DNA from: Geobacter metallireducens GS-15
GTDB lineage: Bacteria; Desulfobacterota; Desulfuromonadia; Geobacterales; Geobacteraceae
Assembly: GCF_000012925.1 (NCBI RefSeq)
Contig: NC_007517.1
Coordinates: forward strand, 2,730,001-2,762,000
Length of the DNA: 32,000 nucleotides
Direction of reading: 5' to 3'
Below are positions 13,282 to 30,946 of the stretch, in pieces. A program made the translations under genes and the position numbers. Every line of letters starts with the position of its first letter. The first letter of the stretch is position 1. The notes below the pieces were generated by a model. The model ran no database searches. It was not told the DNA's origin and saw only the letters and a list, made by a program, of their open reading frames with translations.

Positions 13282-14343
13282 TTACGAATTCTCTCCCAGC
13301 AGGGAAGAGCAGACGCGGTTCTTGCCGGTCACCTTCGCCTGGTAGAGAGCCCGGTCGGCCTCTTCGATCACATCGGCAACCTCAATTCCCAGGCGCAGCG
13401 TCACGGAGGCGATTCCGACACTGACCGTCGGCATTATCTTCTCTTTGTTCACGGGAAGCGACAGCGTCGCCACATTCTGCCGGAATCGTTCCGCAACCAC
13501 CCGGGCGGAATCCTGCGACGTATCGGGGAGCAGCACTCCGAACTCCTCGCCGCCGTAGCGGGAAACGACGTCGGACTTCCGGAAGCTGAGCCTCAGCATC
13601 TTCGCCACGGCGACGAGAACCTGGTCTCCGGCTCCGTGACCGTAGGTATCGTTCACGCGTTTGAAGTCGTCGAGATCGATCAAAAGCAGCGAAAACGGCT
13701 TTGTGGTCCGCTTCCGGGCCTCGACTTCCAGCATCGCCTCGAAGACCCGACGGTTGTAAAGTCCGGTCAGATGATCGCGCATGGAAAGGTTCTTGAGCCG
13801 GTCGCACTCCCGGGCAGCGGCCAGGGAACGGGCAAGGTTTTCGACAACTCCCCCAAAGAACTCGTCGGAATATTGACTTTCGGCCAGGGATTGACGGGAG
13901 AGGGAGAGGGTTCCCGAGCCGTCGGGGAAAGGGATGGTACGGACGTCGGCGGCATCGCTCAGCCCCTTCTGCGCGGCAGCGATAAAGACCGTGGACGTGG
14001 CGCCTTCCTGACGTTTTTTTGACAAATGACGACCGCGTCCCGCCCCACCCCTCATCGTGCCGGTGGAAAAATCATGGCAGCAAACCGAGAGCATTTGCCA
14101 GCCGAGAGTCTCGCCGAGCCATGAAGATGCTACCTCGCATACCTGCCGGGGGTCGAGGATGGAACCGACAACAGCGCCAAAATCCGCCACGAGAAGCAGT
14201 TCGGCAACGCGCCGCTCCAGGGCGGCAGGAGATTCGTCACAACCGGAGTTTGTCGATTTCAGTTCGTGCCGTGCATAGGGGGCGCGTGTCATCCGTGCCG
14301 GTTTTACCGTGCAGTTTCCCGCCATAATGTGCGATTGCAGCAT
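13282..14343 (-). CDS. Diguanylate cyclase (GAF-like N-terminus + GGDEF domain with I-site)
   Basis: The track ORF starts at a TTG at 14349. The ATG at 14343 has GGGAGGA 8 nt upstream. The GGDEF domain shows DHLTGLYNRR, DLDDFKRVNDTYGHGAGD and RYGGEEF. An RKSD (RxxD) motif lies 5 residues before GGEEF. Confidence 0.9.
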   Translation of the reverse strand: MLQSHIMAGNCTVKPARMTRAPYARHELKSTNSGCDESPAALERRVAELLLVADFGAVVGSILDPRQVCEVASSWLGETLGWQMLSVCCHDFSTGTMRGGAGRGRHLSKKRQEGATSTVFIAAAQKGLSDAADVRTIPFPDGSGTLSLSRQSLAESQYSDEFFGGVVENLARSLAAARECDRLKNLSMRDHLTGLYNRRVFEAMLEVEARKRTTKPFSLLLIDLDDFKRVNDTYGHGAGDQVLVAVAKMLRLSFRKSDVVSRYGGEEFGVLLPDTSQDSARVVAERFRQNVATLSLPVNKEKIMPTVSVGIASVTLRLGIEVADVIEEADRALYQAKVTGKNRVCSSLLGENS

Positions 14344-14411
14344 GTTCAATTTCCTCCCTGAAAGAAAACATCATAATAGTTACAGCCAATTACGGAACCA
14401 TTGCCATAAAA

Positions 14412-14769: not shown

Positions 14770-17253
14770 TCAGGACATTTCGCCGACCGCCGCCTCTACC
14801 CGGCGGACTTCGCGGCGAAGCAAGGGAATAGTCCGGGCGACAGCGACGCCGTCGCTCTTTCGAGCCGCCGTTTCCACGTCGGCGGCGTATCTGCTGACAT
14901 GGGGCGCGCCGATTGTTGCAGCCGCTCCCTTCACGGAGTGGGCAGCCGCGGCCAGTTCAGCGTACTTGCCGGTGGCGAGGTATTCCTCCATCCGTTCGCA
15001 CTCCGTCGCCGTTGACTGGGCGAAGATGGAGAGGACCTCAGCAAGGCAGTCCCCGATTCCCGCGTCATGGAACTGTGATTGCTGGAATTCAAGGTCAAAC
15101 GGGGAACCTTCATCGGGAGCATCACGCATCGGGCATCTCTCCTCGGGTGGCAATTCGCCTCTTTCTCCGGCGATGCGAAGGAGCATCCTCTGCAACTCGC
15201 CACGGATAAGGGGCTTGGATAGGTAGTCGGACATCCCTGCGGCAAGAAAACGGTCCCGGTCATCCTTCAGGGCATGGGCAGTCAGGGCGACAATCGGAAT
15301 CGCGCGAGCCTTCTCCCCCGCGTCCCCCCGGCGGATCGCCCGGGTGGCCTCGATCCCGTCCATCTCGGGCATTGAAATATCCATGAGGACCAGGTCGTAC
15401 GTGCCATCCCTGAGGGCGTCAACAGCCTCCCTGCCGTTGGCGACGGCAGCGACCCGCTGCTTGAGCGCCGTGAGCAGACCAATGGCCACCGTCCGGTTCA
15501 GCTCGTTGTCCTCGACCACAAGCACAGAGAGGCTGGGAAGTACGCTGTCGGAAAGCTCCTCGCCGGCGGTTTTGTCCGCTGGAGGACCGGTTGCGGGCCT
15601 CAGGGGGAGGAGAACACGGAAGACCGCCCCTTTCCCCGCCTCACTCTCCACCTCGATGGTTCCCCCCATCAGTTCCACCAGCCCCCGTGTTATGGCGAGC
15701 CCGAGGCCGGTTCCGCCATAGTTGCGGGTTGTGGAAGAATCGGCCTGGCGGAACATCTCGAAGATTCTCTCATGTTTGTCCTTCTCTATCCCGATGCCGG
15801 TGTCACTTACTGTGAAGAGCAGATTTCCGCCGGCAGGGTCCGCATCTGCAGCAAGGGTGACCCGCCCACCCGTCGGGGTAAACTTGATGGCATTCGAAAG
15901 GAGATTGGTCAGTACCTGACGGAGGCGGGCCGGATCGCCACAAATAAACTGCGGCGCCTCATCGCCCACAAGGATCGAGAGGCTGATGTTTTCTCGTTCT
16001 GCCTTTACGGCAAAAAGGCGGCGGAGCGATTCGACAAAGGAGCGGAGTTCCAGCGCTTCGTCCGAAAGCTCCAGGCGCCGGGCTTCGACCCGGGAGAAAT
16101 CGAGAATGTCGTTGATGATGGTCAGGAGCGATTCGGCGGCATTGCTCGAGTCGTCCACCAGCCGGCGCTGCTGCTGAGAGAGATGGGTCTCCTGCAGCAA
16201 CTGGTTGATCCCTATGATGGCGTTCATGGGAGTACGGATCTCATGACTCATGGTGGCGAGAAATTCGCCCTTGACACGGTTCGCCTCCTCGGCCTCTTCT
16301 CTAGCCTGGACAAGTTCGGCGGTCTTCTCTTCCACTTTTTCCTCCAGGTTATTGATGAAGGCGTGGAGTTCCGTCGACATGACGTTGAAAGACGCGGCGA
16401 GTTCATTCATTTCACGGTCGCGGCCGAGAGGGATCTGCTCACCGAGGTAACGGCGGTCGTGGGCGATCCGGCGGGCACTTTCGGTGACAGATGCCAGAGG
16501 GCTTAGGACAACACGGCCGAAGAACCAGTTCTTGATGGCGAAAAACGAGGCAATCACCGCAAGGAGCAACGCCGACAGTCTGAGGGAAAAACTGTTGGCC
16601 TCGGCATAGGCCTCGGACAGGGGAATCCGGATGGAAATTGCCGACACGAGCTCGTTCTCGTGGCGGCTGAAGCTGCGGTTGGGCCCATAGGTGCGGACCA
16701 GGCCGCCTGGTGCCGTCTCCGGGTTACTGTGGCAGAGCAGGCAGGACTTCTCCATTGCTTCGCCGCGTGCCATGGCGACGAAAAACAACTTGCCGTCGAT
16801 CTCGCGTACGCCGTTGAACGTGGTAACCGCCGGATTGTGGCTGGCCCGCTCCAAGAACTCACGCTCGAAGGGATCGGCCTCGTTCCGGGGGCTCCGGGCG
16901 TTGATGGCGCATTCCTTGTAGTAGTACCCTTTCCCGTGGCGTGACTGGAATATTTTGTCGATCTCTCGGACGGCATAGGTGGAGGACATCCAGACCGGAT
17001 CGAAGTAATCCTTGTCCCGCAGGGACGCGGTGAAGTCAAGAAGCCGCGGCTTGAGCTCCTTGTTGATATAGGCATGGATTGCGAGATACCGCACGAGGAT
17101 TCGCTCGGCATCCCGGCCGGCATCGTTGAGGGCCAGCCGCTTCTGGGCGACGTTCACCACCAGGACGATGACAAGGGATGTGACGCCGAGGAGGAGGAGA
17201 TTTATCCGGAGAAGCCGTGCCTTTATTGAGGAAGCCTGTTTCTGGAGAACCAT
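14770..17253 (-). CDS. Hybrid sensor histidine kinase: periplasmic c-type-heme (DUF3365-like) sensor, HAMP, HisKA, HATPase, receiver, HPt
   Basis: 827 aa with these elements:
- TM1 at aa ~15-35
- CLLCH at aa 171-175 in the context [23 protein letters not shown]
- TM2
- H-box ([10 protein letters not shown])
- N/G boxes ([21 protein letters not shown])
- receiver (VLVVEDN...DISMPEMDG...KP)
- HPt ([15 protein letters not shown]). Confidence 0.9.
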
Positions 17254-17416: not shown

Positions 17417-19525
17417 TCAACGGGCCATCTGCTCCAGTTCCACATCGCGCACCAGTTGGGGAATATCGAGGATGAGGGCCACTGAGCCGTCACCCAGAAT
17501 GGTGGCACCCGAGAGACCTTGGACGTCCCTGTACATCTTCCCCAACGACTTGATCACCGTCTGATGCTCGCCGATGACGTGGTCCACCACAAAGCCGACC
17601 CTCGTTCCCCCCACCCGGGTGATGACGATCTGCTCGATCTCCGGCTGCTCACCCCGGATGAGGAACCGCTCCCGCAAGGGGATGTAGGGGACAATCTGGT
17701 CCCGGACCGTGGCCAGGTTGCGGCCGTGGGCGTTGCGCACATCTTCCCGGGTCAGTTCCACGCACTCCTCCACGACGGAGAGGGGGAGCACGAAGCAGTC
17801 GGAGCCGATCTTCACGAGGAGGCTCTCGATGATGGCAAGGGTTAGCGGCAGCTTGATGGTGATGACGGTCCCCGTCCCCCGCTCGCTCCGGATGTCGATG
17901 GTTCCCCGCAGGGCGTCGATGGCCCGCTTCACCACGTCCATGCCGACCCCGCGCCCCGAGACGCTCGTGACGGTCGTGGCGGTGGAGAAGCCGGGGGCGA
18001 AGATGAGGCTGAAGATCTCCTTGTCGGAGAGTTCGGCCGTGGCCGGGATGAGTCCCCGCTCGACCCCCTTGGCCCGGATCGCCTCCCGGTCGAGTCCCTT
18101 GCCGTCGTCGGTGATGGTGATGAGGACGCTGTCCCCCGAGTGTACTGCGGCCAGGTGCACGGTCCCCTGGGGAGGCTTGCCGGCGGCGGCCCGCTCCTCG
18201 GGGCGCTCGATGCCGTGGTCGATGGAGTTGCGGATGAGATGGACCAGGGGATCGTTCAGCTTCTCGATGACCGTCTTGTCCAGCTCGGTCTCGGCGCCGT
18301 CGGTGGTCATCTCGATATCCTTGCCCAGCTCCACCGACAGATCCCGCACCAGTCGCTTGAACTTGCTGAAGGTGGTGCCGATGGGGAGCATCCGGATGTT
18401 GAGGGCCGTGTCGCGCAACTCGTTGGTGAGCCGCTCCACCTCCTCGGCAATGGTAACCAGCAGGGCATCGGCCCGGCCGGCGGCGGTCTGGGAAAGACGG
18501 GCCTGGACGGTGACGAGTTCTCCCACCAGGTTCACCAGCAGGTCGAGCTTTTCCGCCGGTACCCGGATGCTCGACGCGCTCTCCTGGACCTGGCGCTCCT
18601 TGCGGACCTCCTTCACGTGCTGCTGCTCGATGAGGGCCGACTCAACCTTCTCGGGGGAAACGATTCCCTGCTCGACGAGGAGTTCGCCGAAGCGCTTCTG
18701 TTTGGCGAGAATCGCCTCCATGTCCTGCCGGGTCAGATCACCCCGTTCCGCGAGAATAAAGCCGAGCTTCTTGTAATCGGCGTCAACGTCGAGGATACCG
18801 CCGTCGTCGATGACATCGATTTTCAGCTCGCAGTCGTCCTCGATAAAAATGAAGACGTCCCGAATGGCGTCAATCCCCCGGTTCGTAGTCAAAATCACGT
18901 CCCAGAAGACGTGGCAGTGTTCAGGATCAATCTCCTCCAACCGGGGCACTTTTGCCATCTGGGCAACGGTTCGGCAGTGGCCCAACTGGCGGAGTTCCGC
19001 CAGAAGGAGCAGCGGGTTGGTACCGTTGACGGTCACCTCAGGGGAAGGAACAAAGCGGATGCGGTAGGTGACCGCTGTTTCACCCCTCTTCGATTCCTGG
19101 GCGCCTCCTCCCACGGGTGTTTCTTTGGCGGATGCGCCATCCGGCTCCGCCGGCACAAGCCGCCGGAGCCCGGCGATGACCTCCTCTGCCTGGCGCCCTT
19201 CCACCGGTTCTGCCCCGCCGTCCGAGGCGTCCAGCATCCCCTTAATGAGGTCCCGAGCCTTGAGGGTGAGGTTGACCAGGTCCCTCGTGACCGTCATCCG
19301 GCCGTTGCGGACCATGTCGAAGACGGTTTCCACCTCGTGGGTGAAGGTGGCAATGTCGTCGAAGCCGAACATGGCCCCGGACCCCTTGATGGTGTGCATG
19401 GCACGAAAGACCCGGCTGATGAGGTCCATGTCCTCGGGAGTTTCCTCCAGCTCCAGGAGCGATGTCTCCAGCTCCGCCAGGAGCTCGTAGGCCTCTTCCT
19501 TGTATGCCTGCCTGTGGGCGTCCAT
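17417..19525 (-). CDS. cheA: Chemotaxis histidine kinase CheA
   Basis: 702 aa with these elements:
- P1 HPt (MHTIKGSGAMFG)
- P2-like region
- an inserted pair of LGxxLxxxG...Q motifs at aa 253-301
- P3/P4 (HLIRNSIDHGIE, DDGKGLD, GRGVGMDVV)
- P5 CheW-like C-terminus
The ATG overlaps the cheY stop (TAATG at 19523-19527). Confidence 0.95.
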   Translation of the reverse strand: MDAHRQAYKEEAYELLAELETSLLELEETPEDMDLISRVFRAMHTIKGSGAMFGFDDIATFTHEVETVFDMVRNGRMTVTRDLVNLTLKARDLIKGMLDASDGGAEPVEGRQAEEVIAGLRRLVPAEPDGASAKETPVGGGAQESKRGETAVTYRIRFVPSPEVTVNGTNPLLLLAELRQLGHCRTVAQMAKVPRLEEIDPEHCHVFWDVILTTNRGIDAIRDVFIFIEDDCELKIDVIDDGGILDVDADYKKLGFILAERGDLTRQDMEAILAKQKRFGELLVEQGIVSPEKVESALIEQQHVKEVRKERQVQESASSIRVPAEKLDLLVNLVGELVTVQARLSQTAAGRADALLVTIAEEVERLTNELRDTALNIRMLPIGTTFSKFKRLVRDLSVELGKDIEMTTDGAETELDKTVIEKLNDPLVHLIRNSIDHGIERPEERAAAGKPPQGTVHLAAVHSGDSVLITITDDGKGLDREAIRAKGVERGLIPATAELSDKEIFSLIFAPGFSTATTVTSVSGRGVGMDVVKRAIDALRGTIDIRSERGTGTVITIKLPLTLAIIESLLVKIGSDCFVLPLSVVEECVELTREDVRNAHGRNLATVRDQIVPYIPLRERFLIRGEQPEIEQIVITRVGGTRVGFVVDHVIGEHQTVIKSLGKMYRDVQGLSGATILGDGSVALILDIPQLVRDVELEQMAR

Positions 19526-19890
19526 TAGCCGAGCACCTTTTTGACCACCGCCACGAGCTGCTCGGGCTTGAAGGGTTTGACAATCCAGCCGGTGGCCCCT
19601 GCGGCTTTTCCTTCGGCCTTTTTCGCATCCTGGCTTTCAGTGGTGAGCATGATGATCGGGGTGAAGCGGTAGGCGGGAAGCCCCCGGACCCCCTTGATGA
19701 GGCCGATGCCGTCCAGGTTCGGCATGTTCAGGTCGGTGATCACCATGTCGACCTTCGCCCCCCCCAGTTTCCCCAGGGCGTCCTTGCCGTCCACCGCCTC
19801 CACCACGTCGTAGCCGTTCTGCTTGAGGGTGAAGGCTACCATCTGGCGCACGCTGGCGGAATCGTCAACCGTCATGATTGTCTTGGCCAT
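19525..19890 (-). CDS. cheY: Chemotaxis response regulator CheY
   Basis: The track ORF runs to 19911. The ATG at 19890 (MAKTIMTVDDSASVRQ...) has GGAGGA 8 nt upstream. It is a single receiver domain (DD, D in ITDLNMP, T in LTTE, K in VKP). The start overlaps the STAS stop as TAATG. Confidence 0.9.
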   Translation of the reverse strand: MAKTIMTVDDSASVRQMVAFTLKQNGYDVVEAVDGKDALGKLGGAKVDMVITDLNMPNLDGIGLIKGVRGLPAYRFTPIIMLTTESQDAKKAEGKAAGATGWIVKPFKPEQLVAVVKKVLG

Positions 19891-20252
19891 TACTCGTATC
19901 CTCCAATCCATATACAGGATTTTCCCACATCAACGGCGCATCCCACGTGGCGCCGAAAACCGGCGAGGCATGCCGCCTCTTCCAGTATGGGATTCGTCAG
20001 TCCTTCGACAGCAAGCTCCTTCTCCCTGCCATAGGCCGACCGGTGGGCGGAGCAGAGAAGCTGCAAACCGGTGATGTCCACGGCGCTCACCCCTTCCAGG
20101 TTGACAAGCACCCGTCCCGCCCCGTCGAAGGCGTCAAGGAGCGCCGTCGAGAACTCTCCGGCGAAGGGAATGGTCAGCTCGCCATTCACCTTGAGGACAA
20201 GGGTCGCGTTTTCCCCTCCAACTTCTTCCCGTGTAATTGTCAGTCCGTCCAT
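19890..20252 (-). CDS. STAS-domain protein (anti-sigma-factor-antagonist fold)
   Basis: The track ORF runs to 20396. The ATG at 20252 (MDGLTITREEVGGENATLVLKVNGELT...) has AAGGAG 6 nt upstream. The STAS pattern is present: a beta-strand-rich N-terminus, then VNLEGVSAVDITGLQLL, where SpoIIAA-type proteins have DSSG. Confidence 0.8.
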   Translation of the reverse strand: MDGLTITREEVGGENATLVLKVNGELTIPFAGEFSTALLDAFDGAGRVLVNLEGVSAVDITGLQLLCSAHRSAYGREKELAVEGLTNPILEEAACLAGFRRHVGCAVDVGKSCIWIGGYE

Positions 20253-20301: not shown

Positions 20302-22179
20302 TCAAAACAACTCCACATTGTCGCCAAGCCCGTCGTCGGCGGCCCCGCCCGCGGCCGCGGCAAATAGATCCGGCGTCGGCTCGACCCTGGCGCCATTCCC
20401 GGCGATCATGGCATCATGAACCCTCCGTTCGCTGTGCATCGTATACCGGTCGGCCAGCTCCCGCAGCCGCAGCTCTTTGGCATGGGCAGCCGTAGCGGGC
20501 GCAAAGGGGCGGACAGCACCCACGACCCCAGTGATCTCGGCCAGCACCTCATCGATGAGCGCGGTCGAAGTTTCGTGGACGGTCATCACGCCAGTGGCCT
20601 GGTCGATGTCGCGGGAAAGGGCCTGGACGGCCGCGTCGATCCGGCCGAGGAGGTCGATGAGCCGCTCGTTGACGCCGCGGACCGAACCGACGAGGTTGCG
20701 GATTTCGCCGATGAATCCGTCAACCTCTTCGGCAATGAGACGGACGTCGGTGTCGACTTCATGGCTCAGGCCCCCGGTCACTTCAGTGACGTTTCTGAGG
20801 GTATCGGAGACAGCGCCGGTCCGGGTCCGGGCCTCCACCGACAGGTGCTGGATCGCCTCGGCGAGAACGCCCAGGGCTGCCCCGCCATCGCCGGTATTGG
20901 CGGCCTTCACCTGGGAATTGAGGGCGATGAGCTCGATCTCGGAGCCGATCTCCTCGATGGTGGTGACGAAGCCTGCGATGTCCTGCACCGATGCCATTAC
21001 GGTCTCCATGGCCGATGCCAGGTTCCGGTTGGCCGCGGCGTTGTCGGAGAGGACCTCCGTCACCCGCCCCATGCCGTTCTCCATGTCGGCAAAGAATGAA
21101 CTGCCGGCCCGGTCGGCGGTTCCGGCCATGTGGCGGGTTTCGTCCGACAGGCGGGTCTGCCGGCAAGCGATGGCCCGCAGGTTCTCCACGATCCGCGCCA
21201 CGGCCGATGAAAGTTCCTCGCGGGCGTGGCGCAACTGGGCCTCCTGGAGCTCGCAGACATCGGCCACCTCGCAGGCGTTCTTCACCGGATCGCCGGCCTG
21301 GTCCGTAAGATTCGGGATCAGATCGTCAAGGGCCTCCTTGACATGCTCGATCTGCTGCCGGGTAATGTCGTGGAACTGGAGCGACGTGACCACCTCGGCG
21401 ATGCTCCCGGCGGTTTCGGCCGAGGATGAGGTCACGACGCCGACCGCTTCGGAGCAGCGGCCATGGATCTCGGTCAGGGTGACGAGGCTCTCGCGGGTTT
21501 TGTCGAGGATATGGCGGACGTTTTTCCGCTGCTCGACCTCCGACGCGGTTACCCGGGCAAGGGTTCCGCCGATCATGGATGAAAGGGTCTCCTTCTCGCC
21601 GAGGATGGCAACGGACTTTTCCTTGATGGAGACCGAAAGCCGCTCCACGTCGTCGGCCAGGGTATTGAACCCCGCGGCCCCCTCCCCGAGCCGGGCGCTT
21701 TCAATCTTGACGGAGGTGCTTATCATGTGGAGGTTCTTGATTATTTTCCGGAACCCGTCCAGGGGCTCGTCGACATTGCTGATGTGGGAAAGTATCGTCT
21801 TGAGGGTGGTGGCGCTCTGGTCGCTTTCTGCCTCGGCGCGGGAGAGGTAGTCGGCAATCCGGTCGACAATGCCGTGGAGCGCCGCCATGTCGCGGCTGAT
21901 TTCGTCGCCCAGGATCAGGTCCGCCACCTGGCGTGACATCTCCTCGATCTCCCCGGCCCGGCCGTAGAAGTCGTGGAGACGGGCGCCGATGGCGAGAAAC
22001 TCCTCTTCGGTGGAGCCGTTGAGAAGGGAAAGCCGGCCTCCGATGCCCAGGAGCTGCTGGTGCCACGGCTCGAACTGTGCGGAGAGAGCCTGGTTTGCCG
22101 ACAGGGGAGATGAAGCGTCAATCGCTGCTTCGGACTGGTCCGGGTCTGGCCTGAACCTGCGAAAGAATGCTAATGTCAC
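20302..22179 (-). CDS. Soluble, atypical chemoreceptor-like protein with two signalling-tip-like motifs
   Basis: The track ORF starts at a TTG at 22218. The GTG at 22179 has AAGGTGG 6 nt upstream. I see no TM segment. There are two MCP-tip-like segments: ISTSVKIESARLGEGAAGFNTLADDVERLS and IELIALNSQVKAANTGDGGAALGVLAEAIQHLS. These compare with [31 protein letters not shown] in the neighbouring MCPs. The protein ends in DNVELF. Confidence 0.8.
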   Translation of the reverse strand: MTLAFFRRFRPDPDQSEAAIDASSPLSANQALSAQFEPWHQQLLGIGGRLSLLNGSTEEEFLAIGARLHDFYGRAGEIEEMSRQVADLILGDEISRDMAALHGIVDRIADYLSRAEAESDQSATTLKTILSHISNVDEPLDGFRKIIKNLHMISTSVKIESARLGEGAAGFNTLADDVERLSVSIKEKSVAILGEKETLSSMIGGTLARVTASEVEQRKNVRHILDKTRESLVTLTEIHGRCSEAVGVVTSSSAETAGSIAEVVTSLQFHDITRQQIEHVKEALDDLIPNLTDQAGDPVKNACEVADVCELQEAQLRHAREELSSAVARIVENLRAIACRQTRLSDETRHMAGTADRAGSSFFADMENGMGRVTEVLSDNAAANRNLASAMETVMASVQDIAGFVTTIEEIGSEIELIALNSQVKAANTGDGGAALGVLAEAIQHLSVEARTRTGAVSDTLRNVTEVTGGLSHEVDTDVRLIAEEVDGFIGEIRNLVGSVRGVNERLIDLLGRIDAAVQALSRDIDQATGVMTVHETSTALIDEVLAEITGVVGAVRPFAPATAAHAKELRLRELADRYTMHSERRVHDAMIAGNGARVEPTPDLFAAAAGGAADDGLGDNVELF

Positions 22180-22264
22180 GGAAGACCACCTTTGCTCTGG
22201 GAAAAACAGCCGGCGCAACCGGAATCGGCTTTGCTAACTGTACGGAATCGCTATCTGTTCATAC

Positions 22265-22333: not shown

Positions 22334-22729
22334 CTATACGAGACCGTGGCTTCGAATCTCCTTCAACAGCTTCTGCCTGGTGATGGGCTTCACCAGATAC
22401 GAGGTTGCCCCGCCCCGATACAAGGCATCAACGACGTTCTTCGGGTCATCGAGGGCTGTGGTCATGATGACCCTCACCTCATTGGCGCATGCGATTCCCA
22501 TTTCCCGCTCAAGTTCCCTCATGCGTTCCAGGGCGCCGTGGCCATCCAGGTTGGGCATCATGATATCCATGCAGACCAGGTCATAGGGGCGCTTTTCCTC
22601 ATGGGCAAGCCGAAAGGCCTTCACGGCTTCCTCACCGTCGATGGCGATATCGCACTCGCCCAAGGGGGTGATCAGCTCCTTCATGATTTTGCGGGATACG
22701 AAATCATCCTCGACAATCAGCGTCTTCAT
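22334..22729 (-). CDS. Stand-alone CheY-like receiver protein
   Basis: The track ORF runs to 22750. The ATG at 22729 (MKTLIVEDDFVSRK...) has AAGGAG 5 nt upstream. It is a single receiver domain (EDD, CMDIMMPNLDG, TT, VKP). Confidence 0.9.
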   Translation of the reverse strand: MKTLIVEDDFVSRKIMKELITPLGECDIAIDGEEAVKAFRLAHEEKRPYDLVCMDIMMPNLDGHGALERMRELEREMGIACANEVRVIMTTALDDPKNVVDALYRGGATSYLVKPITRQKLLKEIRSHGLV

Positions 22730-22765
22730 TCCTGCTCCTTTCACGCACAAGTTACCCAGAATTCC

Positions 22766-22887: not shown

Positions 22888-23361
22888 CTATTTTTTGAAG
22901 TCGGCGTACCGGGAGATGACGAAATCCCTCTCCTTGGCCTCCTTCTGGTGGCATTCGAAGCAGTTTTTCACCGGGTCGATTCCCGAGGGTTTCCCCTCCG
23001 GCGTAAAGCCGGCGAAGAGCCAGCCTCCGGTGGCGGACTGCTTCTTGTCTTTCGTCATGAGGACGACCATGCTCTTCTTCCCCTTGACCGGCTTTCCCCC
23101 CTCGTTCCTGATGGTGTACTGCACCACCACGAAACGGCTCCCCTCCGGGTACGGCCCCCCCTTCTTGTAGGCGGGCATCGTCTTCTTGTCCACATAGATG
23201 TTGTGGATGCCGTAGAAAAGGGAGGTCTTGTCGTTAATCACCTTCTCCGAGCTCTTTCCCCACTTTTCGTATCCCTTGGGGAGCGCCACCTTCTCTGCTG
23301 CAAAAGCGGCCGAAGCAGCCAGAATGGCTGCAACCGCCGTTACGCCTGCCAATCTTCTCAT
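22888..23361 (-). CDS. Cytochrome P460-family-like periplasmic monoheme protein
   Basis: I prefer the ATG at 23361 (MRRLAGVTAVAAILAASAAFAAEKV, a signal-peptide-like N-terminus; GGGAGGAG 7 nt upstream). The track ORF reaches 23520, where an ATG also has AAGGAGG 7 nt upstream. A single CFECH motif sits near the C-terminus, preceded by GGWLFAGF, as I recall for the P460 family. Confidence 0.7.
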   Translation of the reverse strand: MRRLAGVTAVAAILAASAAFAAEKVALPKGYEKWGKSSEKVINDKTSLFYGIHNIYVDKKTMPAYKKGGPYPEGSRFVVVQYTIRNEGGKPVKGKKSMVVLMTKDKKQSATGGWLFAGFTPEGKPSGIDPVKNCFECHQKEAKERDFVISRYADFKK

Positions 23362-23602
23362 CGATTTACTCCTCCCGTGCTCAATCTCATCTGCCATCCC
23401 TTCGTGGCGGCGGAATGTTCGATCATTTTCACCCATCTCCCCGCAGGCGTCAAGAACAACGGAGGCGTGTATTTGACTACAATTGAGTCTTGACGGTTTC
23501 TTGATGTCTTTCAGCGGCATATTGAGACCTCCTTTATGCGGGATGGGCTACTCTAACATCAGGTGAAAAGCTTTCGGGCTCACGTGGAGGAAGGTAATTT
23601 CC

Positions 23603-23824
23603 ATGAAGATCTATCGCTTTGATACTGATACCGGCGTTTACCTTGGAGAAGATTTCACCGATGACCACGGAAGGGGAGTAACGATCCTGCCGTCAGACTC
23701 TACAACCATCGCGCCGCCACAGGTTGAACAGGGGAATACACTCTATTTCAACGAACGCGAACAACGGTGGGAAGTCCGCACCCGGCCTACCCCCTTTCGC
23801 CGACGTGATCAACAGGTACAATAA
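23603..23824 (+). CDS. Small hypothetical protein (73 aa), possibly a remnant of a phage tail-fibre-assembly-like protein
   Basis: GGAGGAAGG lies upstream of the ATG. The sequence [16 protein letters not shown]...[16 protein letters not shown]...W resembles the N-terminal pattern I associate with tail fibre assembly chaperones. By eye its GC content is lower than that of its neighbours. Confidence 0.4.
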
Positions 23825-23855
23825 GTACGTTGGCATCCGAAACGGAGACCAAATC

Positions 23856-25616
23856 ATGACCCAGTACGAATGGCTGCAAACAACCCTTTTTCTAGTCCTC
23901 CTCTTGGCCGTGGTGAAGCCGATGGGGGCCTTCATGGCTAAGGTCTTCCAGGGGGAGCGCACCATGCTGTCGCCACTCCTCGTCCCGTGCGAGAACCTCC
24001 TCTACCGGATCTGCGGAGTGAACCGTGACGAAGAGATGGACTGGAAGCGGTACGCCGTCGCCGTGCTCCTTTTCAATCTGGCGCTTTTTGTCTCGCTCTT
24101 CGCTATCCTGATGCTGCAGCACCTGCTGCCGCTCAACCCGCAGAAGTTCCCGGCCTACACCTGGCAACTGGCCCTCAACACCGCTATCAGCTTCGTCACC
24201 AACACCAACTGGCAGGCCTACAGCGGTGAATCGGCGGCCAGCTACTTCACCCAGACGGTGGGGCTGGCGGTGCACAACTTCGTCTCCGCCGCCACCGGCA
24301 TTGCCGTGGCGATTGCGGTGATCCGGGGCTTTGCCCGACGCAGGACCTCGATGCTGGGTAACTTCTGGGTCGACATGACCCGCTGCACCCTCTATGTCCT
24401 GCTGCCCATTTCCCTTATTGGTGCACTCATCCTGGTTTCCCAGGGGGTGATCCAAAACTTCAGCGATTACAAAACAGTCCCCCTGGTCCAGCCCATCACC
24501 TACGACAAGCCGAAGGCGGACGGCAAGGGGAATCCAGTCACCGGGCGCGTGACCGTCAAAGATATCACCATTCCCATGGGTCCGGTCGCGTCCCAGGAAG
24601 CGATCAAAGAACTGGGGACCAACGGCGGCGGCTTCTTCAACGCCAACTCGGCCCATCCCTATGAAAACCCCACACCCATTTCCAACATGGTTGAGATCTT
24701 CCTGATCCTCCTCATCCCGTTCGCCCTCACCTCCACCTTCGGCGTCATGGTGGGAAATACCCGCCAGGGGTGGGCGATCCTGGGGGTGATGCTCCTGATG
24801 ATGGCGATCTCCTTTGCCGTGCTGCAAGGCGTGGAAACGAGCGGCAATCCCCTCGTGGCCAAGCTGGGCGTCCACGGTGTCAACATGGAGGGAAAGGAGG
24901 TCCGCTTTGGGCTGGCCGGCGCGAGCCTCTTCACGGTGGCCACCACCGGTACCTCCTGCGGTGCGGTGGCCACCATGCACGACTCCCTCACCCCCCTCGG
25001 CGGCATGATCCCCCTGGGCCTGATACTTCTGGGCGAAATCGCTCCCGGCGGGGTCGGCTCCGGGCTCTACACCATGCTCGCCTTCGTGGTGATCGCAGTC
25101 TTCGTGGCAGGGCTGATGATCGGCAGGACGCCGGAGTTTCTGGGGAAGAAGATCGAGGTGCGCGAGATGTGGATGTCGATCATCACGGTCCTGGCAGCAG
25201 GGGTTGTGGTGCTGATCCTTTCGGGCGTCGCCATGATCACGCCTCAAGCCGTGGCCTCCAAGGCCAACCCCGGCGCCCATGGCCTGTCCGAGGTGCTGTA
25301 CGCCTTTGCCTCCATGGCCAACAACAACGGCAGCGCCTTTGCCGGGCTGAACGCCAACGTCGATTTCTATACCATTCTGGGTTCCCTGGCCATGCTGGTC
25401 GGGCGCTTTGCCCCAGCCGTCGCCGTGCTCGCCATGGCCGGTTCCCTGGCGGAGAAAAAGTACGTCCCACCCAGCCTGGGGACGCTTCCCACCGACAAGG
25501 TTCCCTTTGCCCTCTGGCTCATGCTGGTAATTCTGATCGTGGGCGCACTGACCTTTTTCCCGGCCCTGTCGCTTGGCCCGCTCGTCGAGCATCTGACCAT
25601 GCTGGGAGGTAAATAA
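23856..25616 (+). CDS. kdpA: Potassium-transporting ATPase subunit KdpA
   Basis: The track ORF begins at 23724. The ATG at 23856 ([24 protein letters not shown]...) has GGAGA upstream and gives the typical KdpA N-terminus. The protein is polytopic and carries the [10 protein letters not shown] and TNGGGFF selectivity-filter-like motifs. Confidence 0.95.
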
Positions 25617-25619
25617 TCC

Positions 25620-27689
25620 ATGTCGATACACAAGCCTGACCCGATCTCCATCTTCGACAGCCGGATTATGAAACCCGCGCTGATCGATTCCTTCAAAAAG
25701 CTCGATCCCCGGGAACTGTGGCGCAATCCGGTCATGTTCTGCGTGGAGATCGCCAGCGTCATCACGCTGGTAACCTTCATAATGTCGCTCACCGGAGCCA
25801 ACAGGGAGCCTGCCTGGTTCACCGGTCTGGTATCGGCCTGGCTCTGGCTGACGGTTATTTTCGCCACCTATTCCGAAGCTCTGGCGGAAGGGCGCGGCAA
25901 GGCGCGGGCCGCGTCGCTGCGCAAGACCCGCACCGAAGTGACGGCCAAACGACTCAGCAAACCGGCATTCGGTGACAACTTCACCTTGATCGGCGCCAAC
26001 CAGCTCCGCAAAGATGACTACATCCTGGTTGAGGCGGGAGAGTTGATCGCCGGCGACGGCGACGTGGTGGCCGGGGCGGCCCTGGTGAACGAGTCCGCTG
26101 TGACCGGCGAGTCGGCCCCGGTGGTGCGCGAATCGGGGGGCGATCGGAGCGCGGTCACCGGCGGCACCACGGTCATTGCCAACTCGATCATCGTCAGGAT
26201 CACCGCCAATCCGGGGGAGACCTTCCTGGACCGGATGATCTCCCTGATCGAGGGGGCCAAGCGGCGCAAGACCCCCAACGAGATCGCCCTGGAGGTGCTC
26301 CTGATCGCCCTGACCCTGGTTTTCCTCCTGGTCTGCGCCAACATCAGCCCCCTCTCCATGTACAGCGTCAGGGCCGCCGGCCAGGGGTCCCCGGTGTCGC
26401 TGACCGTCCTGACCGCCCTGTTCGTCTGTCTGGCGCCCACCACCATCGCCGCGCTTCTGCCTGCCATCGGCATTGCCGGCATGGACCGGCTGTTCCAGAA
26501 AAACGTCATCGCATTGTCGGGGCGGGCCATCGAGGCGGCCGGCGACGTGAACGTGCTCCTCCTGGACAAAACCGGCACCATCACCCTCGGTAACCGTGAG
26601 GCGGTGGCTTTTGTCCCGGTCGGCGGCCACAGCGAACAGGAACTGGCCGAAGCAGCCCTGATGGCGTCGCTCACCGACGAGACTCCTGAAGGGCGGAGCA
26701 TTGTGGCGCTGGCGAAGCAGAAGCACGGTCTGAAAAGTAACGCGCTCCCCCCCGATGCGGAAACCATCGCTTTCAGCGCCGAAACCCGCCTGTCCGGTGT
26801 CAACGCGGGCGGCAACCAATACCGCAAGGGAGCTGCCGACTCGACGGTTGCCTTTGTCAGAACCCTGGGTGCAAGGGCCATCCCCGGCGAACTGGCGGAT
26901 GTGGTCGACAGGATCGCCCGGGCCGGGGCAACCCCGCTCGTGGTCAGTTGCGACGCCGAGATCCTCGGAGTGGTAAACTTGAAAGACATCATCAAGAGTG
27001 GTATCCAGGAGAGGTTTCAGCAGTTGCGGAGCATGGGGATCAAGACCGTAATGATCACCGGCGACAACCCCCTCACCGCTGCCGCCATCGCGGCCGAGGC
27101 CCAGGTGGACGATTTTCTGGCCCAGGCCAAGCCGGAGGACAAGCTGCGCCTGATCAAGGAAAACCAGGAGGCCGGCTACATGGTGGCCATGACCGGCGAC
27201 GGCACCAACGACGCCCCGGCCCTGGCCCAGGCGGATGTGGCGGTGGCCATGAACACCGGCACCCAGCCGGCCCGGGAGGCGGCCAACATCATCGACCTGG
27301 ACAGCAATCCTACGAAGCTGCTGGACATCGTCGAGGTGGGGAAGCAGATTCTCATGACCCGTGGGAACCTCACCACCTTCAGCATCTCCAACGATGTGGC
27401 CAAATACTTTGCCATCATCCCGGCCATGCTCCTCTCCATCTATCCCCAGTTGGAAGTGCTGAACATCATGCACCTGGCCACCCCCCTGAGCGCGATCCTC
27501 TCGGCGGTCATCTTCAATGCGATCATCATCCCGCTCCTGGTCCCCCTGGCCCTCAGGGGAACCAAGTTCCGCCCCATGCCGGCCGAAAAACTCCTGATCC
27601 ACAACCTCCTCATCTACGGGGCCGGAGGGATCATCGCGCCGTTCGTGGGGATCAAGGGGATCGACCTGGTGATCGGGATGTTTGCATAA
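25620..27689 (+). CDS. kdpB: Potassium-transporting P-type ATPase subunit KdpB
   Basis: 689 aa with the DKTGTIT phosphorylation motif, TGDN and [27 protein letters not shown] lies 10 nt upstream. Confidence 0.97.
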
Positions 27690-27703
27690 GGAAAGGGGAA
27701 ACC

Positions 27704-28273
27704 ATGAACGACATAAAACCGGCTATTATGATGGTACTCGTCTTTACCATCATCTGCGGCGGTATCTATCCGGCGGTGGTTACCGGGATTGCCCAGGCCG
27801 TATTTCCAAAAGAGGCCACAGGGAGCTTCATCACCGACCGGAGTGGCCGCGAGATCGGATCGGCACTCATCGGCCAGCCCTTCTCCGATTCGAAGTATTT
27901 CTGGCCCCGCCCGTCGGCAACCACTGACTTCGGCTACAACCCGGCCGCTTCCGGCGGCTCCAACTCCGGTCCGACCAATCCTGACTACCTGAAGACAGTG
28001 GCCAACCGGGTCAAGGCACTCAAAGATACGGGCGTCTCCACCGGAATCCCGACCGACTTGGTTCAGGCCTCGGCCAGCGGCCTCGATCCCCATATCTCGC
28101 CGGAAGCGGCAAGCGTGCAGATTCCCCGGGTCGCCAAGGCGCGGGGCATGATGGAGGACAAGGTGAGGAGGCTCGTATCCGGCCACACCGAAGATCGTCA
28201 ATTCGGAATTATTGGAAGTCCGCGGGTGAATGTGCTGGCACTGAATCTGGCATTGGATAGGTTGGCCCCATGA
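27704..28273 (+). CDS. kdpC: Potassium-transporting ATPase subunit KdpC
   Basis: The in-frame track ORF 26948..28273 has a long Arg/Pro/Gly-rich extension overlapping kdpB. The ATG at 27704 (MNDIKPAIMMVLVFTIICGGIYPAVVTGIAQ...) follows AAGGAAAGGGG and gives a KdpC-like single-TM protein (SASGLDPHISP motif). Confidence 0.9.
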   Translation: MNDIKPAIMMVLVFTIICGGIYPAVVTGIAQAVFPKEATGSFITDRSGREIGSALIGQPFSDSKYFWPRPSATTDFGYNPAASGGSNSGPTNPDYLKTVANRVKALKDTGVSTGIPTDLVQASASGLDPHISPEAASVQIPRVAKARGMMEDKVRRLVSGHTEDRQFGIIGSPRVNVLALNLALDRLAP

Positions 28274-30936
28274 CCGATATCAACGACGAAAGACGCCCCT
28301 CGCCGGAGGCGCTTTTGAGGCTCGCCCAGAAGGAAGAGGCTCAAGCGGAACAGGGAAGGCTGAAGATCTTTCTCGGCTATGCAGCCGGTGTCGGAAAGAC
28401 CTACGCCATGCTGGAGGCAGCCCGCCAGCGGAAAGGGGAAGGCCGGGACGTGGTGGCCGCGTACGTGGAGTCCCACGGCCGGGCCGAAACCGATGCACTT
28501 CTCGAAGGGGTGGAGATCATCCCACCGGCACGCATCGAATACCAGGGGGTCACACTTCGCGAAGTGGACGTGGATGCGGTGCTGGCCCGAAAACCCCAAC
28601 TCGCCCTGGTGGACGAGCTGGCCCACACCAATGCCCCCGGCTCGCGGCACGAGAAACGCTGGCAGGATGTGGAGGAACTCCTGGCGGCCGGCATCAACGT
28701 CTACACCACGGTCAACGTCCAGCACTTCGAGAGCCTGAACGACGTGGTGGTGCAGATCACTGGCATTGCGGTGCGGGAAACCGTCCCTGACAGCCTCCTG
28801 GACCAGGCGACGGAGATCCGGCTCGTGGACATCCCGCCGGAGGATCTTTTGCAGCGCCTGCGCGAAGGAAAGGTTTACGTACCGGAGCAGGCCGCGTTTG
28901 CCACGGAGAAGTTCTTCCGGCCCGGCAACCTGATCGCCCTGCGGGAGCTGTCCCTTCGCCGCGCCGCCTCCCGCGTGGACGAGGAGATGCGGGCCTACAT
29001 GGAGTCACGGGCGATTCCGGGGCCCTGGCCGGCGACCGAGCGGCTCCTGGTGAGCGTCAGCGGCAGCCCGTACAGCGAGCGGCTGATCCGTACCACCCGC
29101 CGCCTGGCGGATGAACTGAAGGCCCCCTGGTTCACGGTCTACGTGGAGACTCCCGGCGGCGGGCGACAGGAGCAAGAAAACCGGAAACGGGTCTGGAAGG
29201 ATCTCCGCCTGGCAGAAAGCCTCGGCGCCCACGTTGCCACTCTAACCGCCACGTCGGCGGCGGATGCAATCATCGACTACGCCCGCAGCCACAACGTCAC
29301 CCAGATCGTGGTCGGCAAGCCGGCCAAGCCGCGCTGGCGCGAGCTCCTGCGCCTTCCCCTTGTCGATCAGATTATCCGCCTGAGCGGCGCCATCGATGTG
29401 CACGTCGTCAGCTTCGAACCGGCCGGAGCCAAAAAGGGACCGGTAATCCCCAGACAGAGAAGGCCGATTTCCCTCACCGGATACATGGCGAGCCTGGCCC
29501 TGGTCGCCGCTACTACCCTGGTTTGCCTCCTCGGCCGCCCATTCCTCGCGCCGACCAACATGGTCATGATCTACCTGCTGGCGGTGGTTCTGGCCGCGCT
29601 GCGGCTCGGCCTCAAGCCGGCAATCCTTACGGCCTTTCTGGGTGTCCTGGCCTTCGACTTCTTCTTCGTGCCGCCACGCCTGACCTTTGCCGTGGCAGAC
29701 ACCCAGTATCTCATCACCTTTGTCGCGCTCTTCACTGTCGGGGTGGTCATCAGCACCCTCGTCTCCAAGGCGCGCGAACGGGCCGAAGCTGTGCGGGAAC
29801 GGGAGGTGCAGACCGCGGCCCTCTACTACCTGAGCCGCGACCTGGCCGCCGCCGCCGACATCGAAACCCTCGTGCAGGCTGTAGTCAGAAACATCGGCGA
29901 GTCACTTGCCGCCGGATCTACCGTGCTCCTCCCCAAAGGGGACCGGCTCGAAGTTGCTGCCGCGAGCAAAGGGCTCAAACCCGATGTAAAGGAGATGGCA
30001 GTGGCCGACTGGGCGTTTCGCAACCGGCAACCGGCGGGACAGGGGACCGAAACACTCGTCTCGGCAGGTCTCCTTTATCTTCCGCTCCAGACATCGGGGA
30101 ATATCCTCGGGGTACTGGGGATCAGGCTGAAAAACGTTGCCGATTATCGGTCTACCCAGCCCCGTCGGCTCCTCGACGCCTTTGTCACCCAGACCGCCAT
30201 GGCGCTGGAGCGGGTCCAGCTCTCCCGGCAGGCCGAGCAGACCCAGATCCTCCAGGCCCGGGAAACCCTCGAACGTGCCCTTCTCAATTCCATTTCCCAC
30301 GACCTGCGTACTCCCCTCGTTTCCATAACCGGCGCCCTGGACACCCTGCGGGAAAAGGTGCATACCCTGGCCAACGAAGCCCGGATGGAGCTTCTCGACA
30401 CCGCATGGGAAGAGGCGGAGCGGCTGAACCGCTTCGTCGGCAATCTCCTCGACATGACCCGTTTGGAGGCCGGGGCGCTCAAGGTGAAGAAGGAGCTGTG
30501 CGATGTTCAGGATCTGGTCGGATGCGCTCTGGCTGCTCTCGAACGGCGGATCGGAGGGCGGCAGGTCGATGTACATCTCCCCCCCGATCTGCCGCTCGTC
30601 AGGATGGACATGGTCCTGATGACCCAGGTGCTGGCAAATCTGCTTGATAATGCGTTAAAGTACTCGCCACCGGAAAGCGGCATAGAGATATCTGTTCGTG
30701 TGAATGACGGGAGGCTCGAAATGGAGGTGGCCGACCACGGTCCCGGAATTCCCGAACAGGACCTGAAGAGGGTATTCGACAAGTTCTACCGAATCCCGAT
30801 CCCGGAAGGGTCACGGGGGACCGGCCTTGGTCTCTCAATCTGCAAGGGGATTGTCGAGGCTCACGGCGGCGCCATCCGGGCCGAAAACCGGGCACGTGGC
30901 GGATTGAGAGTAATCGTCACGTTAACGATCAAATAG
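28270..30936 (+). CDS. kdpD: Sensor histidine kinase KdpD
   Basis: 888 aa with these elements:
- KdpD N-terminal domain (GYAAGVGKTYAML)
- Usp-like region
- four TM segments
- GAF-like region
- H-box (ISHDLRTPL)
- HATPase (LDNALKYS, DHGPGIP, GTGLGLSIC)
The start overlaps the kdpC stop as ATGA. Confidence 0.95.
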   Translation: MTDINDERRPSPEALLRLAQKEEAQAEQGRLKIFLGYAAGVGKTYAMLEAARQRKGEGRDVVAAYVESHGRAETDALLEGVEIIPPARIEYQGVTLREVDVDAVLARKPQLALVDELAHTNAPGSRHEKRWQDVEELLAAGINVYTTVNVQHFESLNDVVVQITGIAVRETVPDSLLDQATEIRLVDIPPEDLLQRLREGKVYVPEQAAFATEKFFRPGNLIALRELSLRRAASRVDEEMRAYMESRAIPGPWPATERLLVSVSGSPYSERLIRTTRRLADELKAPWFTVYVETPGGGRQEQENRKRVWKDLRLAESLGAHVATLTATSAADAIIDYARSHNVTQIVVGKPAKPRWRELLRLPLVDQIIRLSGAIDVHVVSFEPAGAKKGPVIPRQRRPISLTGYMASLALVAATTLVCLLGRPFLAPTNMVMIYLLAVVLAALRLGLKPAILTAFLGVLAFDFFFVPPRLTFAVADTQYLITFVALFTVGVVISTLVSKARERAEAVREREVQTAALYYLSRDLAAAADIETLVQAVVRNIGESLAAGSTVLLPKGDRLEVAAASKGLKPDVKEMAVADWAFRNRQPAGQGTETLVSAGLLYLPLQTSGNILGVLGIRLKNVADYRSTQPRRLLDAFVTQTAMALERVQLSRQAEQTQILQARETLERALLNSISHDLRTPLVSITGALDTLREKVHTLANEARMELLDTAWEEAERLNRFVGNLLDMTRLEAGALKVKKELCDVQDLVGCALAALERRIGGRQVDVHLPPDLPLVRMDMVLMTQVLANLLDNALKYSPPESGIEISVRVNDGRLEMEVADHGPGIPEQDLKRVFDKFYRIPIPEGSRGTGLGLSICKGIVEAHGGAIRAENRARGGLRVIVTLTIK

Positions 30937-30946
30937 GGGAGAAGAA

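Follow-up and report, generated by a model that had tools for sequence, protein, structure and literature searches.

A gene of Geobacter metallireducens GS-15, located at positions 20302..22179 on the minus strand of the window (i.e., the whole stretch of 32,000 nucleotides analysed here, contig NC_007517.1, positions 2,730,001 to 2,762,000), encodes a soluble protein of 625 amino acids (aa) that carries two signalling hairpins of the type found in methyl-accepting chemotaxis proteins (MCPs) within a single chain. The two hairpins of this double-hairpin protein are related to each other by an internal duplication and covary with each other, and the gene heads a module encoding a STAS-domain protein, CheY and CheA that is conserved in a large family. 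The arrangement that is tentatively favoured, with a probability that is at best about even, is a cis four-helix bundle, in which a single chain forms a pseudo-dimer and its two tips lie at one end. The protein is a sensor-less, cytoplasmic and all-helical element that originated by tandem duplication of the MCP signalling hairpin. Its parts follow each other in the order helix H1, tip 1, helix H2, variable loop, helix H3, tip 2, helix H4, YTMxSER motif, flexible linker and GDNVELF peptide.

The longest open reading frame (ORF) of the gene covers 20302..22218 on the minus strand and encodes 638 aa when counted from a TTG codon. The 625-aa form found in databases starts at the GTG located at 22179, with AAAGGTGG just before it, and its stop codon occupies 20302-20304; all residue numbers given here refer to this form, which coincides exactly with the range given in the earlier sequence-only reading. 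No transmembrane segment was found in the protein, the highest Kyte-Doolittle mean over 19 residues being 1.33 versus 2.6-3.0 in the neighbouring transmembrane MCPs, and a Pfam scan gave no match to HAMP or to any sensor domain. The absence of transmembrane and HAMP features, which had been claimed from the letters of the DNA, is therefore confirmed, and the protein lacks everything by which a canonical transmembrane MCP is recognized (transmembrane helices, periplasmic or PAS sensor, HAMP). It shares 89% identity with a protein of G. hydrogenophilus and 55% identity with a protein of G. sulfurreducens.

The first MCP-type helical hairpin, unit 1 (aa 36-285; 21325..22074, minus strand, like all the features given below unless another strand is mentioned), includes H1 (aa 36-165) and H2 (aa 170-285). 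The second one, unit 2 (aa 298-556; 20512..21288), includes H3 (aa 298-429) and H4 (aa 434-556). Between them lies a variable loop (aa 286-297; 21289..21324) in which indels and proline are frequent. Unit 1 is supported by the Pfam match of the N-half, a profile match with Tm14, the internal repeat and a covariation centre at 166-167, and unit 2 by Pfam, a profile match with TM1143 and a covariation centre at 427-430. Compared with the Pfam family MCPsignal (PF00015), whose gathering score is 34.6 bits, the whole protein reaches 49.1 bits, with a match split into two stretches. When the halves are scanned separately, the C-half exceeds the gathering score (38.7 bits, E 1e-9) while the N-half stays under it (23.1 bits, E 7e-5), which counts against the presence of two signalling domains. 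The domain-wise search proposed in the sequence-only reading thus returns two stretches, of which only the second passes the cut-off when taken alone.

From this low score of the N-half and from the many coiled-coil families that match the protein weakly, it could be proposed that only unit 2 is a genuine MCP signalling domain and that the first similarity is coiled-coil noise. This view is very improbable, and it is already contradicted by the comparison of the two units and by the profile matches of unit 1. The N-half and the C-half are aligned by BLASTP with an E-value of 3e-8 and with their tips in register. Furthermore, the family profile of unit 1 finds four Tm14 entries (E 2.5e-9 to 4e-8; 3g67, with both arms covered, at E 2.5e-9) as well as TM1143 and Tsr (E 1e-4 to 1e-3), and unit 1 holds an invariant IESAR.G....GF motif with canonical spacing. 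The family profile of unit 2 matches TM1143 (2ch7) with an E-value of 4e-19 over 260 residues, i.e., approximately the whole cytoplasmic domain, almost without gaps. This gapless alignment indicates that the register of unit 2 is 44H-like. These comparisons place unit 2 in the PF00015 superfamily, and unit 1 as a second, independent signalling domain belonging to it. The earlier claim of two MCP-derived tip segments per chain stands on the scans of the halves, on the internal repeat and on the Tm14 matches.

Tip 1 belongs to a block (aa 139-182; 21634..21765) with the consensus PLxGFKKI..KIESARLG..AGF..LAxDVxxLS and a turn at about aa 165-170, near aa 167. Tip 2 belongs to a block (aa 404-448; 20836..20970) with the consensus FVxDIExIGxEIELIALNxQxKAAxTGxxGAALGVLAEAIQxLS and a turn at about aa 430-433, near aa 431. 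In the G. metallireducens protein, the tips themselves read KIESARLGEGAAGF..LADDVERLS (aa 158-182) and IEEIGSEIELIALNSQVKAANTGDGGAALGVLAEAIQHLS (aa 408-447). Both are near-invariant in the family alignment, which includes 254 homologues with a median identity of 37%, and the tip motifs that the sequence-only reading had located there are thereby borne out. The spacing of the tip 1 motif, IESARLGEGAAGF..LA.DV..LS, is exactly canonical. The tip residues E160, F171, N421, G430 and G433 are invariant or nearly so; the canonical turn glycines of tip 2, for example, are found in 249 (G430) and 252 (G433) of the 254 sequences.

In three neighbouring canonical MCPs of class 34H, the tip consensus is complete, whereas each tip of the double-hairpin protein retains about half of it. 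Tip 1 has kept IE.AR.GE...GF and lost LLALNA, while tip 2 has kept IE.I....LIALN.Q and shows the replacements E->K, R->N and GF->AL. Relative to the neighbouring MCPs, the decay of the two tips is thus complementary. This complementarity suggests that trimer contacts and CheA/CheW contacts are shared out between the tips. Receptor dimers in arrays are symmetric in structure but asymmetric in use, one subunit facing the trimer axis and the other facing CheA/CheW. The tips of the double-hairpin protein may be specialised in such a manner, tip 1 providing the E..R.GE...GF face and tip 2 the IE.I....LIALN face. This specialisation would fit unequal subunit roles in an array, with one tip turned toward the trimer axis and the other toward CheA-P5/CheW. 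If this is true, a natural single-chain receptor with complementary decayed tips would be an evolutionary experiment separating the two subunit roles, and it would offer a handle for assigning tip residues to the trimer-axis role or to the CheA/CheW role.

The relative position of the two units was approached by covariation, using mutual information with average product correction (MI-APC) and mean-field direct coupling analysis (DCA) summed along diagonals, on 105 and then on 254 sequences (effective number about 180-200). Among individual MI or DCA pairs, the top ones mostly reflect phylogeny and gap columns, and only the diagonal sums are informative. With both methods, antiparallel ladders are centred at 166-167 and 427-430, i.e., at the two tips (z 3-5). 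Long-range antidiagonals (separation 260-400) peak at a centre of 291-300 (z 4-6.6) and associate H1 with H4 and H2 with H3; parallel offsets of 260-277, which join H1 to H3 and H2 to H4, also peak (z about 3.7-4.1). None of these positions stands out in an entropy-product control, which stays flat there. The coexistence of long-range antiparallel and parallel signals indicates that unit 1 packs on unit 2, like the subunits of a receptor dimer, and such packing rules out a parallel unit1:unit1' rod, where a unit would have no partner other than its own copy. Of the alternatives raised previously, the pseudo-dimer, whether in cis or swapped, is thus backed by covariation, which disfavours a scaffold whose tips would each be paired with their own copy. 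As far as sequences can tell, the packing of unit 1 on unit 2 supports either a single-chain pseudo-dimer or an antiparallel swapped dimer. The two hairpins would pack into a heterotypic four-helix bundle, so that one chain would supply what a normal receptor homodimer supplies.

Several observations weigh against the cis bundle. The z-scores of the covariation peaks are moderate and the number of effective sequences is only about 180-200. Contacts within a chain and between chains look alike in such an analysis, and the peaks would be explained just as well by two giant hairpins forming a dimer or by an antiparallel dimer with swapped units. The minimal four-gene module is devoid of CheW. Lastly, two AlphaFold2 runs (predicted local distance difference test (pLDDT) 83 and 90; predicted template modelling score (pTM) 0.64 and 0.76) show a helix that is unbroken through both tips. 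DSSP assigns to these models helices 137-285 (149 residues) and 298-530 (233 residues; in the first run, 360-530). The chain reverses clearly at aa 286-297 alone, which gives one giant hairpin and no four-helix bundle. The prediction of the monomer structure, which had been proposed as a check, therefore shows no turn at either tip and speaks against the hairpins.

If the topology given by AlphaFold2 were right, the chain would form one giant antiparallel hairpin, with an N-arm (aa 36-285) and a C-arm (aa 298-556). It would probably assemble as an antiparallel dimer, i.e., a four-helix rod of about 37 nm with the former tips straightened and zipped at mid-rod and each end occupied by conserved polar motifs. 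Instead of forming hairpin tips, the tip motifs would be relics or serve as lateral binding sites. The two runs agree on this topology, and the second one reaches a pLDDT of about 94 over both tips besides its higher pTM. Of all the covariation sums, the highest is found on the antidiagonal centred at 291-300, along which the conserved blocks also pair. Furthermore, a hairpin of 2 x 105 residues taken from the model superposes on Tm14 in Foldseek (template modelling score 0.85), as expected of a single long hairpin. However, the homology of each unit to solved MCP hairpins extends along its two arms, and neither the turn glycines nor the E..R.GE..GF signature has been lost. The charged residues E160, K425 and E432 occupy positions that a straight helix would place in the core, and Pro435, present in 13 sequences, counts against a straight tip 2. 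In the same way, alpha-proteobacterial homologues carry an uncompensated 4-residue deletion at tip 1, and the ladders at 166-167 and 427-430 would require an additional antiparallel dimer. More generally, monomer AlphaFold2 predictions are unreliable for long oligomeric coiled coils. The giant hairpin is judged rather unlikely.

Indels in H1 and H4 were sought as a test of topology and do not co-occur. A deletion of 4 residues in H1 (aa 110-113) was observed in 45 of 253 family members (about 18%); none of the three other helices carries an indel that would compensate for it, which is odd for a tight four-helix bundle.

The presence of two signalling domains in one receptor chain has a precedent that the sequence-only reading missed. 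DosM (VC1403) of Vibrio cholerae is a double signalling domain receptor that defines, with a triple CheW, the F9 class; it spans two baseplates located 35 nm apart, its genes are ordered DosM-W3-B..R-Y-A, and VC1403 was classed 44H. Like DosM, the double-hairpin protein is soluble, is devoid of sensor, includes two tandem MCP signalling domains per chain and is encoded inside a che cluster; its architecture is thus the MCPsignal:MCPsignal one of F9. Furthermore, the 44H-like register of unit 2 corresponds to the class given for VC1403, and its arms have a length that would allow it to span about 35 nm. However, its genetic context differs from that of F9, the neighbours being STAS-CheY-CheA without any CheW-CheW-CheW protein, and Geobacter is absent from the published table of 72 F9/DosM species. 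The Geobacter family also differs from DosM by its complementary and degenerate tips and by the additional invariant motifs DITRQ..EH and YTMxSER and the GDNVELF peptide. The comparison of DosM (VC1403, WP_001185438.1) with the Geobacter family covers architecture and gene context. On this description, the family combines a DosM-like architecture with a module of another kind, the CheS-type one, and it is set apart from DosM by its specialised tips and its extra motifs. A '40+24H' class was also considered and discarded, as this label comes from another paper and nothing links it to the double-hairpin protein.

This precedent leads to another arrangement of the chains. If the loop 286-297 were extended, two chains could associate antiparallel, unit 1 with unit 2', into a double-ended rod of about 36 nm. 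The pair of tip 1 and tip 2' at each end could then bridge two CheA layers of a cytoplasmic array. Such a scaffold would produce the same covariation sets as the cis bundle. Since the arms include about 115-130 aa, i.e., about 18 nm each, the length of two successive units agrees with the 35 nm reported as the spacing of F9 arrays, and DosM itself is a sensor-less MCPsignal:MCPsignal protein extending across two baseplates. The 44H class of VC1403 and the gapless alignment of unit 2 with the 44H receptor TM1143 also agree with it. However, neither a triple-CheW gene nor the F9 gene order was found in the window or in related loci, and Geobacter, as already mentioned, is not among the 72 species. 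Both AlphaFold2 models are most simply read as a chain reversal at aa 286-297, and a weak short-range antidiagonal signal is centred at 294-296. The double-ended scaffold is therefore regarded as rather improbable, and the cis bundle is preferred in what follows.

The double-hairpin protein has a large family. A sequence search retrieved 1035 homologues. In a representative library, 1967 clusters were matched at E <= 1e-30, part of which possibly correspond to ordinary MCPs, and the best 150 of these 1967 clusters (50% identity) are all full-length matches with more than 475 bits. The best 80 genome loci all belong to Geobacterales or Desulfuromonadales. Among them, 69 include enough downstream DNA to be informative, and the genes of the double-hairpin protein, STAS protein, CheY and CheA follow each other on one strand in 66 of these 69 loci. 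A response regulator gene is also present upstream in 43 of the 69. In G. sulfurreducens, the same module is found, with no adjacent CheW, CheR or CheB; distant members keep it as well, and one metagenomic member consists of a stand-alone four-gene module.

In the window, the module includes, downstream of the double-hairpin gene, the genes of the STAS-domain protein in a CheS-like position (19890..20252), of a CheY-type response regulator (19525..19890) and of CheA (17417..19525), all recognized from Pfam and synteny. The CheY-type protein has equivalents of D12, D13, D57, T87 and K109 and is 81-98% identical across loci. CheA carries Hpt, dimerisation, HATPase and CheW-like P5 domains. The single-domain response regulator kept upstream in 43 loci is encoded at 22334..22750. 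The STAS gene is preceded by a junction of 49 nucleotides that includes an AAGGAG site, whereas STAS/CheY and CheY/CheA junctions are TAATG overlaps, which indicates a translational coupling of the STAS, CheY and CheA genes. The earlier claim that the gene heads a STAS-cheY-cheA operon is consistent with these overlaps and with the synteny of the 66 loci, and it is retained.

The conservation of the family also bears on the possibility that the double hairpin results from two adjacent genes, fused by a frameshift, as mentioned in the same reading, or through an error of assembly or annotation. A single ORF of about 600-650 aa recurs in over 250 sequences, which come from numerous genomes and metagenomes, in 80 genome loci and in the complete genome of G. 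sulfurreducens. Because this single ORF is conserved in the family, such an artefact is excluded for practical purposes.

The double-hairpin protein is probably a dedicated receptor-like scaffold and regulator of its cognate CheA, encoded downstream, and would have the CheS-like STAS protein and the highly conserved CheY as partners. The position of the phospho-serine in the STAS protein reads DITGL. In SpoIIAA and RsbV, this position reads DSSG or DSTG at the phosphorylated serine. Judging from these residues, the STAS protein is probably not under classical partner-switch phosphorylation.

The che cluster of the window is the one that Tran et al. 2008 number 3 in G. metallireducens; in their paper, one low-identity c-domain (15%) of this cluster was left out of the average and the two tips are unmentioned. 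A search of the MCP alignment in the same paper for the motifs of the double-hairpin protein found none of them, and a literature search by the locus tags GSU1286-1291 found no papers.

A comparable operon head, which the sequence-only reading did not mention, is known in alpha-proteobacteria, where the soluble receptor IcpA (Sinorhizobium meliloti) or MCP514/Atu0514 (Agrobacterium fabrum) precedes CheS (STAS), CheY1 and CheA. The order soluble MCP, STAS-only protein, CheY and CheA is identical to that of the Geobacter module. CheS of S. meliloti binds CheA and accelerates the dephosphorylation of CheY1-P. MCP514 is described as having a single 36H signalling domain, with the tip asparagine N336, and an uncharacterised N-terminal region. 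Remote full-length homologues of the double-hairpin protein were found in Rhizobiaceae as a 'chemotaxis protein' of about 576 aa (e.g., WP_304983968.1 and WP_241949778.1; hhalign Prob 99.5, E 4.5e-23, 521 columns), whose genes adjoin STAS-RR-CheA-CheW (RR, response regulator) or ParA-CheB-CheR-CheW. These homologues have kept DITRQ..EH, YTMxSER and an acidic ..LF C-terminus. They differ from the Geobacter proteins by a decayed tip 1, with the 4-residue deletion located exactly there, and by an internal repeat that is no longer detectable (E 0.037). Orthology between this alpha-proteobacterial family and MCP514 was rejected, the tip asparagine of the family being located at residue 386 and not at residue 336.

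The ParA neighbour of the Rhizobiaceae homologues and their tip near residue 387-395 recall the TlpT/PpfA locus of Rhodobacter sphaeroides, and from this locus geometry TlpT may belong to the same superfamily as the Geobacter proteins. For example, on plasmid p1 of Agrobacterium leguminum (L087:6686-9192), the gene of a 576-aa homologue adjoins a ParA-family gene followed by cheB-cheR-cheW-mcp-mcp. Several Rhizobiaceae members are misnamed in public records as 'type VII secretion target', 'DNA-binding ferritin-like protein (Dps family)' or 'MlaD'; they include the member of Shinella plasmid p2 (WP_241949778.1, L086:6707-8431), P0263 and P0346. The family thus defines a widespread and unstudied four-gene module (double-hairpin protein, CheS-like STAS, CheY and CheA) in metal-reducing Geobacterales, with remote relatives located beside ParA/PpfA-type genes in Rhizobiaceae, and it may connect the biology of DosM, TlpT and IcpA.

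Besides the tips, the family alignment reveals invariant motifs and a C-terminal peptide that the sequence-only reading did not note. One of these motifs is located near the end of H2, EVVTSLQFHDITRQQIEHV (aa 262-280; 21340..21396), which resembles the DxxxQ site of CheZ. Its residues Q268, D271, R274 and Q275 are found in all 254 homologues, and it is kept as IGDITRQRIEH in the Rhizobiaceae ones. The segment QFHDITRQQIEH (aa 262-280) aligns with the catalytic helix of CheZ, F-H-D-I-T-R-Q facing F-Q-D143-L-T-G-Q147, so that D271 corresponds to D143 and Q275 to Q147, in an alignment that is weak (hhalign E 0.05-0.16). When the segment is isolated, Pfam CheZ is the sole family that matches it, below threshold. 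More precisely, PF04344 gives 13.5-18.4 bits versus a cut-off of 30.7, and 16 of 28 members match it at E <= 1, the best one at 1e-4. A PDB profile search at E <= 10 returned no CheZ chain. Membership of the CheZ family was thus rejected, all the scores being below threshold, and the likeness is retained as a lead at the level of the motif. Like CheZ, the double-hairpin protein is a helical-hairpin bundle, and in each of them a flexible linker leads to an acidic C-terminal peptide whose last residue is F; the rest of the double-hairpin protein is MCP-like.

A HisKA_3-like phospho-histidine at H270-D271 was also considered for this segment and rejected, as the alpha-proteobacterial homologues have Gly in place of H270 and Pfam gives no HisKA_3 match. 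The invariant QQ (aa 275-276) lacks the flanking small residues of the methylation-site consensus [ASTG][ASTG]xx[EQ][EQ]xx[ASTG][ASTG].

Geobacter has no cheZ, and Tran et al. 2008 raised the question of how its Che pathways dephosphorylate CheY in these conditions. It is conceivable, but doubtful, that the single-chain receptor pseudo-dimer doubles as the missing CheY-P phosphatase of its pathway. In such a case, D271-I-T-R-Q275, located at the distal end of the bundle, would act like the DxxxQ site of CheZ and of HisKA_3 kinases, and the repeatable GDNVELF peptide would tether CheY or another partner. A kinase scaffold and a phosphatase would thus be joined in one MCP-derived chain, and cytoplasmic receptors such as TlpT and IcpA would have this fold in their uncharacterised N-terminal halves. 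Were the DITRQ motif catalytic, the question of CheY dephosphorylation without CheZ in Geobacter would be answered.

Two other conserved elements are located after the last helix. The first one is the invariant motif RYTMHSERxxH (aa 578-588; 20416..20448), whose residues Y579, M581, R585 and H588 are invariant or nearly so in the 254 homologues and which is kept in the alpha-proteobacterial relatives as YTMxSERDVH. It is followed by a variable low-complexity linker (aa 589-617) and by the terminal peptide LGDNVELF (20305..20415 for the linker and the peptide), with invariant N621 and F625. In 7 of 260 homologues, the GDNVELF peptide is repeated in tandem, with 2-14 copies. A homologue of 793 aa (P0180; locus L085, 8001-10382) ends with 14 tandem copies of ..DDSSMGDNVELF, and six others (P0144, P0148, P0152, P0155, P0252, P0254) carry 2-6 copies. 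From these repeats, GDNVELF would behave as a short linear docking motif open to multiplication. Pentapeptides that tether CheR or CheB have the consensus xWxxF, or xF/YxxF/Y in class 34H. NVELF shares N, E and F with NWETF but not the aromatic residue at position 2, where the family has V or I and, in just 7 of the 260 sequences, F.

Further downstream of cheA and on the same strand, the window encodes a hybrid kinase, a GGDEF protein, three 34H MCPs, which have the C-terminus EFEKF, CheW, CheR, CheD, CheB and an EAL-HDOD protein. CheW is a single-domain protein of 178 aa. The hybrid histidine kinase (14770-17253, minus strand) carries a Tll0287-like sensor, HAMP, HisKA, HATPase, REC and Hpt domains and is located between cheA and the 34H MCP genes. 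The gene of the GGDEF protein (13282-14349, minus strand) also lies between cheA and the three 34H MCP genes, and that of the EAL-HDOD protein (634-1869) closes the cluster. The presence of GGDEF and EAL-HDOD genes in a che cluster hints at a link with cyclic-di-GMP.

Upstream of the module, a cytochrome P460 gene is found at 22888-23520 on the minus strand. In 12 of 12 related loci among the matches listed by tblastn, including that of G. sulfurreducens, such a gene is located 2-5 kb upstream, and this recurrence suggests a conserved synteny. The region 23724-31648, on the plus strand and divergent from the che cluster, appears from the ORF translations alone to be a kdpABC-kdpDE potassium transport operon; it encodes a KdpA-like protein of 630 aa and a P-type ATPase of 689 aa with a DKTGTIT motif.

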